A stretch of 64,000 bases of DNA, taken from Torpedo marmorata. Its lineage: Eukaryota. Made by a program: the position numbers and the translations under genes. Below the pieces are notes generated by a model that searched no databases, was not told the origin of the DNA, and saw nothing but the letters and a program-made list of their open reading frames with translations. Position 1 is the first letter of the stretch. Each line of letters begins with the position of its first letter. Positions 42,073 through 50,725 of the stretch are shown one piece after another. The DNA lies in contig OZ360242.1 in NCBI GenBank assembly GCA_977017645.1, positions 30,194,001-30,258,000 on the forward strand. Direction: 5' to 3'.

Positions 42073-42834
42073 AGGCCTTTTCACACCGCCAAAGTTTGGC
42101 GACCCTCCTAGGACCCGGGTAAAGTTCCCGGGAAGGCTGCACCTCCAGGGCCTTTCTCACCGCAGCCTTACTTACCTGGTAAATCGGCAACCGGACATTT
42201 TAAGGAGGGGTCCCGCCTCCAGTGATGACATCGCGAGTGATGCGTTACGCACTCAATGGCCGTCTTCATTACCCATAATCCCCCACGCAGCTGGAACCGC
42301 TCTGCCAGCGCCAAGGAAAAGCAGAGCGGTTCCAGCTGCGTGGGGGATTATAGGTAACGAAGACGGCCGTTGATCCCGAATTGAGCCGCCGTTGCTGCCG
42401 CCCTGAACGGGCCCGTTATTTTTTGATTTCACAGGAGCATTGAAAGCTACAGGTTTTGCAATTTTAAAATACTTTTAATATTGTGGTTTAGTTCCCTTTG
42501 GCATTGTTAAAGTAACATTTCTATTGTTGTATCTCTTATTTCTATTGTTATTTGACGGCTTGTCAGTCAGTCAGGGGTTTTATGTGACGCACGCACGCAG
42601 GCGCTGACGTCACTAATCTTACCAGGTAAGCCATTTGTGCTTTCACACCGCCAGAAGGCGATTGGCGGGTTAACTCGGCTGGGCTCCGAGAGTACCCCAT
42701 GACCAGGTCTCAGAGCCCGGTCGATTTTGACCTGCCTTGCCCAGTTGGGACGTTTCACACCGCACGATTACCGGGTAAGTTACCGGGTATATTGCCCGGT
42801 TAACCCACATGTACTCGGCGGTGTGAAAGGGCCT
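42073..42834. mobile_element. Non-autonomous TIR DNA transposon (MITE, PIF/Harbinger-like)
   Basis: Terminal inverted repeats (TIRs) AGGCCTTTTCACACCGCC / GGCGGTGTGAAAGGGCCT match 17/18. Flanked by ACT...ACT (or TA...TA if the TIR starts 1 nt inside). Internal TTTCACACCGC repeats; no ORF. Confidence 0.85.
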
Positions 42835-43008: not shown

Positions 43009-43588
43009 TATAGTGACTTCAATCCAACAATAGTCACTTGGAGGCTAGGTGAGATACTTGTTTTTGACGCATTTCAATTAATTTACTGACAAAGTCCTAT
43101 ATGTTCAAAAAACTTTATTTACACACGTGACTTGCAGCAATCTTCAATGACTTAAATATCTTCTTTAAACAAAATAAACAGTTCTTGATAACGAGGTTTA
43201 ATATATTCCTTTAAACGATTCCTTTGATTGTATTTAGACGTTCAATGTAATGACTTTAAACCATCAATGAAACAAGTTTAAATGTTCAATGAAACGGTCA
43301 ATAAAAGATATGGTGATCTCACTCACCCTCCTCTAAGCTGCCATCTTTTTCCAATACTTTTTCCCGATTCGCGCATGCTCAATACGCATATCCCACCACG
43401 CACACTCCACCGCGCACACTCCACCGCGCACACTGCCGTCAATTCCAAACTGCGCATGCGCCCGTCGGCACTCTAGCGCATGCGCAGAGTACTAAATAGG
43501 CCTAGCACGGCCTACAAACACCGCGACTCCTCCGTAACCCGCCGAGAACATCGGAGCGCCGCGACCAAGGTAAGTAATCAAGCCTACA
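43009..43588 (-). repeat. 3' LTR
   Basis: Minus strand TGTAGGCTTG...GTCACTATA. About 15 substitutions and 4 indels relative to 48252-48835 (~97%, counted by eye). Confidence 0.95.
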
Positions 43589-43784
43589 CCGGCCCCTAAT
43601 TATTATAATTAGACGCAATGTCTTAAATAATAATTACACATCAATTAAAAATAACAATAACCATAACATTCAAACAATATACAATTCTTCTTTCTTCTTA
43701 AGACCAGAGTTTACCATAACTCTGAATCAACAAAAGTCTGTACCTGTGAAATATACGACAACAAATAAAGTCAGTTTGTATTTA

Positions 43785-43967
43785 TCAAAGTTCCTCCGTC
43801 TCCAACAGAAGGCAGACCTTGTTAATGGGTCTATTTAGAAAGCCAGTCTTAGTTCTAATTCGAACTTGACGCACAAGTCCCCTTTTGTCCTGAATAGTCT
43901 CAATAATTTTTCCAAGTAACCAGAAGTTTCCTGGAGTTGAATCGTTCACAATAATTACAGAGTCTCC
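43785..43967 (-). pseudogene. BEL/Pao polyprotein C-terminal remnant (post-integrase, DUF5641-like)
   Basis: My translation: GDSVIIVNDSTPGNFWLLGKIIETIQDKRGLVRQVRIRTKTGFLNRPINKVCLLLETEEL*. Confidence 0.85.
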
Positions 43968-44344
43968 TCAAAGTTCTTTTATCTCCAGAATCTTTGAGTT
44001 AAACCGTCGACCAGTAAACCTCAAATCTTCCTCAGACAAAATAGATACAGTTTTTCTTAACACGAGGCGCTTCTTCAGCATGTCGTTTTACTTTATTTCT
44101 TTCTTCAGTATTCCACTTCTCACGTGAAGAATTTAAACTCTTAGAACTAGAATTTGAATATTTATCTGATCCTTTCGATTTTAATAAACGAGTCTCTTTA
44201 ACCACTGGTTTCTATTGCCTTTTCCTGCAATTCCAAATCCAATTTTGCAACTTTCAATTCAGTCTCAGTTCCTTCCGAGAAATTAATAACTTGATCTGAA
44301 ATCAAAATATTATGTGATACTTTGATATTTCTATTGTCAACCCT

Positions 44345-44652
44345 GCTGTGGTAAACTTGAAATTTTTGAATTTATTCATCTTGCTTGTTACATTTCTGCA
44401 ATGCAATATCACTTTCTTTCTGCATTGTTAATAGCTGAACATTCAATTTACAATCTTGATTGTTTTTTGTAATCAACTGTTTTGTGTTATTAACCAATAA
44501 CTTGTTCTCTTTCAATATATTAATCTCTTCAACCTTTTACATTTTGATAATGCTGAATCTCTTTCCTCAATAACTGTATTCATTTCTTCAGCAGTTATTC
44601 TTTTCTTCCGCTTTCTGACTTTGCGAGTTTTACTTACAATTAAATCTTTCTG
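44345..44652 (-). pseudogene. MIPOL1: Captured MIPOL1-like coiled-coil fragment inside the LTR element (one frameshift, one stop)
   Basis: KKRITAEEMNTVIEERDSALSKCKRL / EEINILKENKLLVNNTKQLITKNNQDCKLNVQLLTMQKESDIALQKCNKQDE*IQKFQVYHS aligns with recalled MIPOL1 KMRITAEEMSALIEERDAALSKCKRLEQELHHVKEQNQTSANNMRHLTAENNQERALKAKLLSMQQARETAVQQYKKLEEEIQTLRVYYS. Confidence 0.8.
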
Positions 44653-44783
44653 TTTACTGTTTTCATGATTATCTAATATTTCCAATTCCCCTTTCAACAT
44701 TTTGTTCTCTGAATTCAATTGCATTAAATTATCATTCACATTCTTCTTTATTCCATCAGCACAATTTCTTGTGTTCTCCAGTT

Positions 44784-46046
44784 TTACATCACATTGCAAT
44801 ATTTCTTCATTGACTTTGCTGTAACCTCCGAACTACAAAATCTACTTTCAAATTTGTTTTCAGTCACTTGTTTTATTCCTATATCTGATTCAATTACACA
44901 GGAATAATCACTAGTATTATTTGAAACATCTTCTAATACTTCATTTTTATCCATTTCTGATGAACATAATTCCTTCAATGTTGTTTTAAATACCTTTGAT
45001 TTATTTTCACATTGATCTGTTTTCTTTTCTTCAAAAGTGATTTTCTTATACACATTTTTTTGCTCTTCCCTGAACTCATCAACTTTCACAACCAAAATCC
45101 TGTTAATATTTATCGCTAACTGTTCCTGAGCAATATCATTATTTCTTTCCAATGGTCTATTGATTGTCCAACCAAGCTTGGTTCTAATAGCGTAAGGTCC
45201 ATTCCTTCTACTCTGTATTACTTCTAGTGGTTCCAAAACCTTTGGCACATCTGAACCAATCAGCATTTCTATCTCAGAATTAATTTCAGGTAAATAAACC
45301 TTCCACAGATAAGCTAAATGATGGATATCATTTTGATGAGGAATATTTCCTTCATGTACAGGCATAGTCTTCTGAGTATATAACATTGGAAGATCACAAA
45401 ATTTTTTGTCATCCAATCCAGCAACCTCTAAGCCTGAAACAATGCTGGTTTCAACTACCTTTTCTTGTCCCATGGTTTTTAACATAATTCTTGACCTTCT
45501 TCCTTGAATATTAAGTTTGTTCATTAGTCCTTCTGTGCAAAAAGATGCAGTGCTGCCTGGGTCTAGAAATGCATATGTATGTACTGTTGCATCCCCTTTC
45601 TTGGTGTTGACTTGTACAGGCACTATCGAAAGTTTGCAGTTATCTATACCAGCCCCGGTAAGACCACTTGTCTGAACCGAGGTTATAACATTATTTTCTG
45701 TTGTTTCCTTTGTTTCTGTTTGCTCCTTTTCCAATTCCTTGTTTCTTTGATGGATATGCAAAATTCTAGGATGTTTCAAATTGCATATGTTACAATTAAT
45801 TCGCTTCTCGCAGTTTTTACTGATGTGCCCTTTACACAGATAGCTAAAACATATTCCATTTTCCTTTAAGAAAGCGATCTTCTCATTATGTTCCTTCTTT
45901 TCCAATCGTAAACACATTTCCAAAGCATGTCCACCTTTAGAGAACAAACAACTCTTTTCATTAGGCAAACTTTCCTTTTCCTTATTTACTTTGTCCTTTT
46001 CTTTATTTATAACTGACACATTAGTAGCAAAAGTACTCCTTTTCAA
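44784..46046 (-). pseudogene. BEL/Pao Gag Cys-His knuckles and aspartic protease, followed by non-RT sequence
   Basis: CFSYLCKGHISKNC, CNICNLKHPRILH, protease YAFLDPGSTASF, LIGSD and PYAIRTKLGW. Confidence 0.9.
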
Positions 46047-46053
46047 TTTCGGA

Positions 46054-47058
46054 CTAGTCTGAGTTAGACCTCCTTACATCTTTGCCCATTGAATTGTCTC
46101 TGGTATTTCCATATATTGGATCTGTTTCAATGTACACCTGTCGTTCAAGAAAATTTACCAAATCCTTTAAGGTAGCTCTTCGACTGTAATTTTCTTGTAA
46201 ATCACAAGCCAAATTTCTCCATCTATCCCACAACTTGTAAGGTAATTTTTCTAAGATGATTCGCATATTACCAGGCACTTCAAGCTCACGAATATTATCG
46301 ATATCTTCCATGGCATTACAACATCCACTTAAAAATAGAGTATATTCTTGTAGCGCCTTTACATCATTCTGTTTTATTGATGTCCATTTAAGAGCTTTAT
46401 CCATATAAGCTAAAGCAATTCGATGCTTGTTGCCAAAATGTTGTTCAAGTAAAGTCTTAGCTCTGTCTAATCCTCTTTCTGAGGACATATGTTGACAACT
46501 TTTTACAAGTTCTTTTGGATGTCCCTTTGTGAACATTTCCAAATAATAAAGACATTCATCACGATCTTGGCATTTATTTTCAATATTGCGTTTGAAACAT
46601 CTCATAAATGATTGGTACTGAAGTGGATCACCATTAAAAGTTTGTATCTCTTTCTTGGGTAAAGAAGAGAGAGACTGTAACTGAATCAATGATGCAGCAA
46701 TTTCATTTTGTCTTCCCTTGGATGACAATACATTGCTCTGTTCACCGCCTCTTGTTACAGGTAATGTATCTGGAAACCTCACTGGTGTAGTTTCTTCCAT
46801 ATTTTTGATGCTTGACTCAAATAACAAGGAAGCTGCATCGTTCGACCGAACCCATGCCGCAGCTTTGTCTTCATGTGTTATCACTGGTACATGTGACTCG
46901 ATACCAATTTGCTCTTGAAGGATTTGTCCTTGTATTTTCAAGTTTTGTACCCCTGTTTCTAAAATATCTACTCTTTTGGTTGGTTTCTTTTCCTGTGACT
47001 CTTTTTTTAAAATGTGACCTTTTATTATCAGACACTTTGGATAATTTACTTTGAGCAC
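46054..47058 (-). pseudogene. BEL/Pao Gag capsid-like region (DUF1759-type)
   Basis: LPKKEIQTFNGDPLQYQSF...LYYLEMFTKG.PKELV...ILEKLPYKLWDRW...LVNFLERQ...DPIYG is typical of fish BEL gag. Confidence 0.9.
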
Positions 47059-47791
47059 CAGATACTATTGAGCCTTCTATTGCTTTCTTTCTGGCTATGG
47101 CAATAGCAATATCTGTTTTCAGCTCATGCTGCTCTTTTCTCTTTCTTAGCTGCTCTTGTCTCTTCCTTAGCTGTTGGCTTTGTCTTAGCTGCTCCTCCTG
47201 TTGTCTCTGCCTTAGCTGTTCCTTTTGTTCTCTTAGTTCCTCCTCCTGTTCTTCTAAAATATGTTTATCCTTAAGAGAATTTTGTTGTGCAAGAAGAGCG
47301 GCCAATTTAACATCAATCATTGTATGTGACGATGCAGAACTTGAAGTACGAGAAACTCTGGAGCTCGAACCAGAACTTCATTTGCTTCTCCTGCTTTCAG
47401 CATTTGAGACACTGTCACTTGCTTGTATTTTGTCCTGCACATCATATGTTGTCTTCATACTTACCTCCTTCACAAATTCGAATGGTACATCCTTTGCATC
47501 TTCATCCTCTTCATTTTCTTCATCCTCTTCATTTGGTGACACAATTTCAGCCATTTCTACATTATCTTCTTGTTCATCTAACAAAGCCGCCTCTTCTTCC
47601 TTTGCCTGCTTCAATCTTGTGATGAGAACCTTTTTATTTCCACTTATATCTTTTCTCAGTCGCTTCAATTCTTTTTTAATATCCGCAACCTTCATGTCTT
47701 CAATACGTTGGTCCTTAACAGTAACATCAGCGGTTGCTGTGTCAGCTGCTGATACATCAGTGGCTACTACATCAGCGGCTGTTGCGGCCAT
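46871..47791 (-). pseudogene. Gag N-terminus: SAP domain, acidic tract, Ser-rich segment and coiled coil (one in-frame TGA at 47378-47380)
   Basis: ORFs 47378..47878 and 46871..47320 share a frame. Likely start ATG at 47791 (AAAATGGCC). SAP motif at 47600-47704; BEL-like SDSVSN and KDKHILEEQEE motifs. Confidence 0.8.
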
Positions 47792-48251
47792 TTTACTCGT
47801 CTTGTTCCACTGTCCTTCAAGCATACACAACACTAGCCAAATCAACATTTCCCAATGGACTAGCGGCAGCAAATCCAATCTGTGTTTTAACTTGCCAAAG
47901 ATACACAGAAGGAGTCCACAGACTTATATGCCTACCACTTCAGATGACTGTAATGTGCTGCTATTCACAAACGAGTTTCAACCACAACATCCGTCAATAA
48001 TATCGCTGATTTTCCAAAAATGGTTTCTCCAACGTATTTATAGTACACTTTACTATAAGATTTGAAGCTTTAAATCCCTCTCTGGCTGTTACTCATGGCA
48101 GATGGATGTGGATTACAAACTGCCCCCAACTCGAGGCATCTCCAAGATGGCCACCATTTTATTTTAAATATCAGTCCAAAGCACAGAGAGGTTATTCTAT
48201 CTTCTTTCCTTCAATTTTCTGTTCCAAACATCCACTTTTATTGACTAATTA

Positions 48252-48835
48252 TATAGTGACTTCAATCCAACAATAGTCACTTGGAGGCTAGGTGAGATAC
48301 TTGTTTTTGACGCATTTCAATTTATTTACTGACAAAGTCCGATATGTTCAAAAAACTTTATTTACACACGTGACTTGCAGCAATCTTCAATGAGTTAAAT
48401 ATCTTCTTTAAACGAAATAAACAGTTCTTGATAACGAGGTTTAATATATTCCTTTAAACGATTCCTTTGATTGTATTTAGACGTTCAATGTAATGACTTT
48501 AAATGACTTTAAACCATCAATGAAAGAGTTTAAATGTTCAATGAAACGGTCAATAAAAGATATGGCGATCTCACTCACCCTCCTCTAAGCCGCCATCTTT
48601 TTCCAATACTTTTTCCTGATTCGCGCATGCTCAATACGCATATCCCACCGCGCACGCTCCACCGCGCACACTGCCGTCAATTCCCAACTGCGCATGCGCC
48701 CGTCGGCACTCTAGCGCATGCGCAGAGTACTAAATAGGCCTAGCATGGCCTACAAACACCGCGACTCCTCCGTAAACTGCCAAGAACATCGGAGCGCCGC
48801 GACCAAGGTAAGTAATCAAGCCTACGGCTCTTACA
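48252..48835 (-). repeat. 5' LTR
   Basis: Minus strand TGTAAGAGCCGTAGGCTTG...GTCACTATA; direct repeat of 43009-43588; two GCGCATGCGC (NRF1-type) motifs. Confidence 0.95.
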
Positions 48836-49065: not shown

Positions 49066-50117
49066 TTTTCCCTTTTGATTCCAGTAATTTTCAAGTTATT
49101 TTCAGAATATGCCCTGCATTAAGAATCCTCCAAAATTTTCAATGGGAAATTTATTTCTAAAAGTCCCCTGCAGCACCATAGTATGAGTGTGGATCTGGGA
49201 CTTTTGTAAAGTTTAATTTATTTTAATGTTGGGCTCTTTTGTCAAGAACAAGTTCTATGATATGCCATTAACTATTTAAACCATCCCAGAGCAATTCAAA
49301 GGTGTTACGCATAGGTTAGAATGATACTGAGCCACTCAGGGATATATGTCAGGTTTTAATGAGGAGGAGAAGCAGAGCAGTGAAGAACTCAGGGAGGGAA
49401 TTCAAAGCTTGTAGCCTTAAAAATGTAAGGCATCACTCTGAACACTGGGGAAGGAAGCCCAGTAATACTCTGGTTTGATCCAATTTGATGAAAGGCAAAA
49501 AAGGTGAAGGGACAAAAGAGTCTATTATGATTTTTACACAGACTTCGCGGGATTTTACAGTTATGAAGAGTCTCTGATATCCTGGCATTGGTCGTTCACA
49601 CAGGAACGACCAAAACTGCAAATCTCTGTTTCTGTCCGCGATTTTAGACAGCATACCGGCATTCCGCAAATAAAAGGGGCGGGACGTGTAACTCAACAGC
49701 GTCGACGTCTGCGTCTAATGTCACGTTTAACATACCGTATTTGACGGCATGTTAGACCCACTTGTTTTTCCCAAAAAATGGCTCAAAAATATTCCCCTGG
49801 TTTTATATGCCAGGTTGAAATTAGGGTGATAATGGTGAGTAACGCTGTCGGTCCCCGCACTGCTCATTGTTGTGTTGATAAAGTGTCAGGTCCGTGAGAG
49901 ACGAGTCTGGACACAAGGGTTTGCTATCAAACGTTACTTTTATTAAAACACAACAATTAATAGAAAGCGTGGGAATATGCACAATAAGTGTACAATATGA
50001 AAGAGCGTGGGAAAAAATGCGCACAATTTAATAAGACATACGCACACAATGTATAAAGGAGCGTGGGAATAATGCTTTGTGATTGCCCTCACAATCTGGC
50101 AGACCTAGTGTCAAATC

Positions 50118-50519
50118 TAGGGTTAGGGTTAGGGTTCAGGTTAGTTTGTCAATATGCAGGCAGCAGGATAATCATCCCTCTTGTGTTCACTGGTCTCCTC
50201 TCTCAGAGGTTCTGTGTCACTATAAACTGCCACTTTTGGTTGGCCCATGCTTTCATTACCCTGTGCCTGTTTCTAGCTCTTAGTGGGATCAGTTGTGCAT
50301 TTTGATATGTCCTGGGGTAAGTTTATTGTCTGCATAGTGGGTGACCTTATATTCACATGTTAGGGTTAGGGTAAGGTGTGGGATTTTGGATAGGGTTAGG
50401 GTTAGGGCTATGGTTGGGGTTCTGGTTAGGGTTAGGCGTGGGGTTCAGGTTAGGATTAGGCGTGGGGTTAGGGTTAGGGTTAATGATAGGGTTAGGGTTA
50501 GTGTTAGGGTTAGGGTTAG
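50118..50519 (+). repeat. Interstitial telomere-like (TTAGGG)n arrays, degenerate
   Basis: Short array at 50118-50143 and a longer degenerate array at ~50360-50519. Confidence 0.9.
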
Positions 50520-50538
50520 CGACCCACAGCAACAGAAA

Positions 50539-50725
50539 GCAGGCAGCGAACCGCTGGGACAGAGCGGGACAGCGGACTGCGGGAGAGAACAGGCAGCGGA
50601 CCGCCGGGACAGCGGGCTGCGGGAGAGAGCAGGCAGCGGACTGCCGGGACAGAGCGGGACAGCGGGCTGCGGGAGAGAGCAGGCAGCGGACCGCCGGGAC
50701 AGCGGGCCGCGGGAGAGCAGGCAGC
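50539..50725. repeat. GC-rich minisatellite with alternating 50- and 40-bp units
   Basis: Units at 50539-50588, 50589-50628, 50629-50678 and 50679-50716, plus a partial unit. Confidence 0.9.

Follow-up and report, generated by a model that had tools for sequence, protein, structure and literature searches.

Capture of several host genes by long terminal repeat (LTR) elements, as in maize Bs1 and the animal cases of Tan et al. (2016), and pseudogenes derived from circular RNA (circRNA; Dong et al., 2016) are each known; the family analyzed here works as the former and carries the defining junction of the latter. Its representative lies at 43009-48835, on the minus strand, of a 64,000-nt stretch of Torpedo marmorata DNA (contig OZ360242.1, positions 30,194,001 to 30,258,000; assembly GCA_977017645.1), which we call the window. 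It is a non-autonomous BEL/Pao derivative: the LTRs, a 5-nt target-site duplication (TSD) and Pao-type Gag, Cys-His knuckles and protease (PR) are present, and reverse transcriptase (RT), RNase H (RH) and the core of integrase (IN) are absent. In their place stand pieces of the host genes BRCA1, MIPOL1 and Elongin A (ELOA), with the MIPOL1 exons in permuted order. The window copy belongs to what we term subfamily A; subfamily B is a less decayed sister.

The animal LTR-mediated retroposition of Tan et al. includes a Pao element, BATUMI, with two Drosophila genes; an internal open reading frame (ORF) is swapped for partial intronless mRNA copies from several parents, often sense and in frame, with secondary retroposition, and the main text contains neither 'circular' nor 'rfwd2' (PMC5131818). 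The same features recur here: about 3.2 kb of pol in a full-length partner family corresponds to a 1.09 kb insert of intronless pieces, poly(A) is lacking, and secondary retroposition has left copies with common junctions. The present family differs in its thousands to tens of thousands of copies, its probably back-spliced donor and its measurable long-term selection for an open frame. Maize Bs1 carries three host-gene fragments in a hybrid ORF, with switch points common to all of its 1-5 copies and one piece out of frame (PMC5131818, PMC13317346), whereas ours is a vertebrate BEL/Pao element with every piece in its native frame behind Gag-PR and with a permuted exon block.

For circRNA-derived pseudogenes such as those of mouse circRFWD2 (33-42 mouse copies), Dong et al. 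report LTRs only as enriched in the flanks and state the mechanism to be unknown (PMC4897178). The likeness lies in an exon junction out of genomic order, sequence drawn from the circle alone, the absence of poly(A) and an association with LTRs. The present case differs in that the putative circle piece forms a coding part of a defined LTR family, for which switch points have been mapped, which has an LTR-end junction and which exceeds 4,000 copies. Replication-defective transducing retroviruses, which have a helper-dependent genome with a gag-host fusion replacing pol, are a further parallel, although the present family has no env, is a germ-line retrotransposon and gives no sign of selection on the host peptide. 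Our search of the open-access literature, supplements aside, turned up no description of the family, of a circRNA junction lying in the coding frame of an LTR element, or of the combination at such copy number. The route from circRNA to genomic DNA that Dong et al. left open may here be traceable to the base, as reverse transcription by an LTR element, with mapped donors, switch points, decay intermediates (from B to A) and a helper.

Three host genes in one reading frame

The middle of the window element spans about 1,090 nt (45064-43968). Neither Pfam nor the proteins of a full-pol relative detect RT, RNase H or an integrase core in the element, and the RT-RH and integrase proteins of that relative align with the protease linker and the C-terminal stub of integrase and with nothing between the two. 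The absence of these domains, which an earlier sequence-only reading had proposed, is thereby borne out, and the same two comparisons rule out a degenerate RT or RNase H in the middle. That reading had counted two host-like modules; there are three, one of them circularly permuted.

The loci of all three donors were identified in the genome and their exons retrieved. The MIPOL1 donor match has E 1.6e-19; amino acid identity is 77% for BRCA1 and 93% for Elongin A (PDB E 1.8e-53), and the nearest named BRCA1 and Elongin A proteins are those of electric ray. A search of representative proteins gave 42 matches, the five inspected being ordinary MIPOL1 proteins; the A insert has no match in PDB or Pfam. 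The origin is clearest in B copies, which hold four BRCA1 exons, five MIPOL1 exons plus 17 nt of a sixth, and five ELOA exons at 90-100% identity to the host, with introns removed and native frames kept. The pieces of all three genes are spliced, in sense orientation and in frame with Gag-PR. Subfamily A carries a shortened, more diverged form of the B cassette, the window copy being about 76-90% identical to the host exons; it has lost the ELOA exon part that we take to be the BC-box, together with several hundred nt of insert, while B keeps these Elongin A exons with their Pfam Elongin_A match (L039:2447-2860 and other B copies).

The strong divergence from the donors noted in the sequence-only reading therefore stands for A, which has drifted about 20% from the host. 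Because B has a synonymous divergence of only 2-8% from the host, we take this divergence to have accumulated in the replicating lineage after capture. The host BRCA1 exon (C61:25488548-540) lacks 9 nt that are present in the element and in two other ray proteins, so that the capture predates the host deletion. A second, more distant Elongin A-like locus (C25:175.31 Mb, 59-68% amino acid identity) is not the donor examined here. The SAP domain was also considered as a captured module and rejected, since the full-pol partner has it too and it is thus native to the lineage.

Capture of the spliced pieces likely occurred by template switching of reverse transcriptase. The switch points show 6 nt of microsimilarity at the ELOA-integrase joint and 2 nt at BRCA1-MIPOL1; the pol-BRCA1 joint is an 11-nt filler of unassigned source, and the MIPOL1-ELOA joint is an LTR end.

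A permuted MIPOL1 block

The host MIPOL1 exons run in the order A-B-C-D-E-F-G-H-I, but in the element the order is F(part)-G-H-B-C-D(part). Exon H, which ends at a GT donor, is joined to exon B, whose AG acceptor lies 206 kb farther upstream in the host. This junction is present in 60 of 60 loci examined: the 30 nt past H match exon B at 20-30 positions and the normal next exon at only 6-9, and homologous proteins place an exon boundary at the same point. Exons B-H are all bounded by AG and GT and sum to 780 nt, a multiple of three, of which about 589 nt are present in subfamily B; exons A and I are absent. Contigs from a related organism (run X1) part from the element at precisely the junction base, one flank continuing into exon I and the other into exon A, and a contig from run X4 has the linear order, 586 nt back, with 191 letters between D and F. 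These and the other runs are only guessed to be RNA, none being on record as such.

The simplest source of such a block is likely a back-spliced 780-nt circle. A permuted copy could also have arisen if exons B-H had once been duplicated in tandem and the duplicate then lost, by trans-splicing, or if RT had jumped on a linear mRNA; each of these routes would yield an identical junction sequence, and a duplicated allele that has since vanished is compatible with the one assembly. We nevertheless consider these origins unlikely. Exon B occurs once within the 400 kb of the gene fetched, which speaks against a duplication. An RT jump would have had only an AG to pair, the final two nucleotides being all that exons A and H share, and would have had to land precisely on two exon ends, whereas the remaining junctions between modules lie mid-exon. 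The captured MIPOL1 sequence does not exceed a single turn of B-H, from which only the 191 nt opposite the junction are missing. Mammalian MIPOL1 circles, of whatever exon content, are also listed for mouse and human in array studies (PMC9888537, PMC8783515).

Some points weigh against capture from a circle by template switching. The circular RNA itself was not observed among the contigs, and the element copies carry the same junction; microsimilarity is clear at one module junction only (6 nt).

An LTR end inside the cassette

In subfamily B, the exon D piece of 17 nt gives way to another 17 nt that are identical to a natural LTR start of the family, from its TG and without a single base of the polypurine tract. 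This linker matches the LTR start at 17 of 17 positions and exon D at 5 of 17. The joint looks like one made by integration, which would imply that the exon was DNA at the time of joining and was spliced afterwards. Alternatives are integration into a cDNA or an end-to-end RT jump, and it counts against an integration into the exon that none of 87 pattern matches is an intermediate with a longer LTR after exon D.

Starting from the anatomy, donors, exact splice-site junction, copy floor, partner family and selection pattern described here, we can propose how the remaining steps would run. The element would have integrated into MIPOL1 exon D, which is probably why the circle entered a particle, the 17-nt LTR end in B being the remnant. 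Within the particle, RT would have jumped between co-packaged RNAs, from the element to Elongin A mRNA, to circMIPOL1, to BRCA1 mRNA and back to the element, exchanging RT-RH-IN in frame for the three host pieces. The cassette would later have been transferred to a second backbone, that of subfamily A and the window copy, and shortened by in-frame deletions. Such an element could make its own Gag and protease, favouring packaging in cis, and borrow RT and integrase from a helper in trans. Translation through the insert would keep the stop near the 3' end, a candidate way of avoiding nonsense-mediated decay, with the host peptides probably passengers. Taken as a whole, from template switching and a circular source to a trans-acting helper and selection for an open frame through RNA protection, we regard this account as probably correct.

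A more specific version can be advanced only tentatively. In it, an LTR element that had integrated into a host exon would have been back-spliced as part of a host circle. On a template that has no 5' end, RT would have continued past the LTR into the upstream host exons and beyond the back-splice junction, and the product would now serve as the coding tail in tens of thousands of copies, retained by selection for translatability alone.

Selection appears to keep the frame open

In several natural copies no stop interrupts the frame between the knuckles or protease and one common stop behind the insert, so that the single chimeric frame supposed in the sequence-only reading is present in the family, and the frame breaks of the window copy arose after, or close to, its insertion. 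That reading had further suggested an old capture, possibly under selection. Selection appears to act on the openness of the frame and not on the host amino acids.

Ratios of non-synonymous to synonymous change (dN/dS) were estimated from 33-39 A copies, counting variants as shared when present in at least 4. For shared variants the ratio is 0.17 in the protease, which is under purifying selection, 0.37 in the knuckles and 1.07 in the insert, and for singletons it is 0.69-0.88. Compared with the host, the A insert gives 0.80 and the MIPOL1 part 0.88. Over 318 insert codons, the fixed differences between A and B comprise 30 synonymous and 92 non-synonymous changes and no stop. In simulations with the observed mutation spectrum the synonymous share is as expected (0.246 observed, 0.231 expected, P 0.34), but 9.2 stops are expected, and none of 5,000 runs was without a stop. 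Length differences were taken from 19 A and 8 B copies aligned together, 14 of 41 having been dropped for missing anchors or nested insertions. Those fixed between A and B are 6, 24, 120, 81, 195 and 3 nt, with a further 3-nt run that is split within B; all are multiples of three, compared with only 12 of 74 private indels. Selection thus appears to keep the insert open without conserving the host amino acid sequence, and with thousands of copies the family is a natural experiment in which these two kinds of selection can be told apart.

Other observations fit this conclusion less well. The C-terminal part of Gag has a dN/dS of 0.98, though from few sites; a -2 frameshift near insert position 489 occurs in 3 of 20 copies and a -1 or -2 shift near position 1030 in 8 of 20; and a CGA>TGA (CpG) stop near the end recurs in 6 of about 39. 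Given the shared frameshifts and the recurrent stop, an open frame is favoured and not obligatory. The fixed A-B changes in the insert are also strand-biased and not driven by CpG (C>T 44, G>A 37, C>A 24, G>T 4), unlike the singletons, which points to a mutation bias of the replication cycle.

Could the insert be an unselected passenger that is open by luck? Its amino acids do drift neutrally and some frameshifts do recur among copies, but luck would have to account for 0 of about 9 expected stops, for fixed indels that are all in frame and for three independent captures that are all in frame, and we consider it highly improbable.

The chimeric tail might instead be a working protein, in which the MIPOL1 coiled coil dimerises Gag-protease in place of RT, or the BC-box of B recruits Elongin B/C. 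The three pieces are in sense and in native frames, B keeps its Elongin_A match, and plain counting between A and B gives a dN/dS of 0.64 (p 0.035). In a single-sequence structure model of a natural copy, the MIPOL1 part is still predicted as long helices (pLDDT 82-96 for residues 150-230), with low confidence elsewhere. Against this stand the neutral synonymous share, the ratios of 1.07 for shared variants and 0.88 for MIPOL1 against the host, and the fact that the BC-box and several hundred nt of insert are gone from A, by far the more abundant subfamily, so that a function of the protein is rather unlikely.

At the RNA level, the fragments could act as a shield, because small RNAs silencing them would also strike essential host genes. 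BRCA1 and Elongin A are important genes, and B is within a few percent of the host. However, the successful A has drifted by about 20%, and a shield leaves the avoidance of stops and frameshifts unaccounted for; we think it improbable. The likeliest reason for the open frame is protection of the RNA from decay. A long untranslated stretch behind a stop is an established trigger of nonsense-mediated decay, and a stop directly after the protease would leave about 2 kb untranslated compared with about 0.85 kb.

Probable helper, copy number and subfamilies

Using an integrase-core motif linked to the stub of A as a pattern, we find 523 matches, and all 20 of those inspected carry A-type LTR sequence. 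Most of the 12 loci that were extended have RT, RNase H and integrase motifs, are 87-94% identical to the window element over gag-PR, and in some cases have LTR pairs differing by only 1-2%. In Pfam, SAP, Gag, Peptidase_A17 and DUF5641 score above or near the cut-off, and RVT_1 and rve more weakly. This full-pol family, with the same backbone and LTR type, answers to the autonomous partner that had been sought, and is likely the helper that mobilises the element in trans. Another full-pol family (L083/L189-L218) was considered for this role and rejected: it has the same polypurine tract but a different LTR and only 70-78% identity, and the closer family was found. At locus L227 the protease is joined almost directly to the integrase, another pol deletion, and at L239 and L242 an A copy lies directly beside partner-family sequence.

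The middle 1.3 kb used as a query returns 6,414 candidate loci in the 6.2 Gb genome, the 40 scored matches being 93-96% identical. Counting an exact 20-mer that spans one internal junction gives 3,995 occurrences for A, 186 for B and 0 for reversed controls, which places the copy number at no less than 4,000 (>4,000). In 601,680 bases fetched around host genes, five full A inserts were met by chance, one of which had the exact 20-mer; this suggests about 20,000-50,000 copies, a rough figure from non-random DNA. The proposal of a non-autonomous, multi-copy family is thus confirmed. Thousands of copies with common junctions rule out a single-copy deletion with unrelated insertions, and neither a lone copy, nor unshared junctions, nor remnants of RT or RNase H were met. 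In these fish, so many BRCA1, MIPOL1 and ELOA fragments, together with a DNA-encoded back-splice junction, will mislead gene annotation and the calling of circRNAs.

The two LTRs of a copy are about 3-7% apart in A and 5-8% apart in B, and 50 A inserts form a star-like tree with tips of 2%. The LTRs run TG...TA in A and end in CA in B. Between A and B the synonymous divergence (dS) is 0.40-0.47 in gag-PR and 0.23 in the insert; because the backbones are the more diverged part, and have different LTRs and 3' joints, the cassette has probably moved between them. Contigs bridging the module junctions (L166:4900-7800; runs X1, X4, X5 and X6) occur in related organism A, with host exons slightly different from those of the present genome, so that the cassette is probably common to related species; A-type deletions are seen in the X5 and X6 contigs.

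Anatomy of the window copy

The order of parts and the TSD proposed from the sequence alone agree with the alignments and with Pfam (Table 1). CAGAT flanks both outer ends, and the LTRs, put earlier at about 97% identity, match in 550 of 564 aligned columns (97.5%); about 10 nt are missing from the start of the 3' LTR, and both LTRs end in TA, not CA. In Pfam, SAP is found (E 9e-9), the DUF1759 Gag (E 4e-7) is above the cut-off, DUF1758/Asp protease is weak (E 0.01, below the cut-off), and DUF5641 is matched over its last 54 profile positions only. The Cys-His knuckles were read from the translation. No TGG primer-binding site lies directly behind the 5' LTR (window 48251-48230) in A or B copies.

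Table 1. Features of the element in the window, in order of transcription
Feature	Position	Strand	Remark
5' LTR, 584 nt, TG...TA	48252-48835	minus	CAGAT outside
Gag start (ATG at 47791) and SAP domain	47378-47791	minus	stop near 47378 breaks window copy
Gag low-complexity part and DUF1759 capsid-like core	46054-47377	minus	frameshifted in window copy
Cys-His knuckles, aspartic protease (DPGST motif ~45560) and pol linker to capture junction	45065-46073	minus	
BRCA1 149-nt exon piece (host C61:25497377-229)	44951-45064	minus	24-nt in-frame deletion
BRCA1 large-exon 5' piece (host C61:25488548 onward)	44648-44950	minus	spliced to 149-nt exon
MIPOL1 exons F (3' part), G, H	44346-44647	minus	spliced
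Back-splice-type junction, MIPOL1 exon H donor to exon B acceptor	44345-44346	minus	
MIPOL1 exon B and C pieces	44205-44345	minus	81-nt in-frame deletion between
Elongin A pieces: large exon 3' end and FTGRRFNSK exon	43986-44203	minus	
Stop closing the chimeric frame	43968-43970	minus	family-wide
Integrase C-terminal stub (DUF5641 41-94)	43785-43967	minus	behind stop, hence now 3' untranslated
Polypurine tract	43589-43600	minus	common to both full-pol families found
3' LTR	43009-43587	minus	AATAAA near 43118

The BRCA1 large-exon piece of the window copy has a 4-nt slippage deletion near 44835. About half of 30 window-similar matches carry it, but none of 20 evenly sampled copies does, and carriers are scattered on the tree, where their labelling is incomplete; a frameshifted lineage is therefore rejected, and the deletion looks like recurrent slippage enriched by the choice of query.

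Neighbouring sequence

Just outside the element, at 42253-42373, lies a 53-nt inverted repeat with 94% complementarity and a 15-nt spacer. On the other side, a TTAGGG-like array, degenerate and spaced at 12 nt, occupies 50094-50531; it may be a relic of an interstitial telomere-like sequence. A GC-rich 40/10-nt repeat comes next, at 50534-50713.

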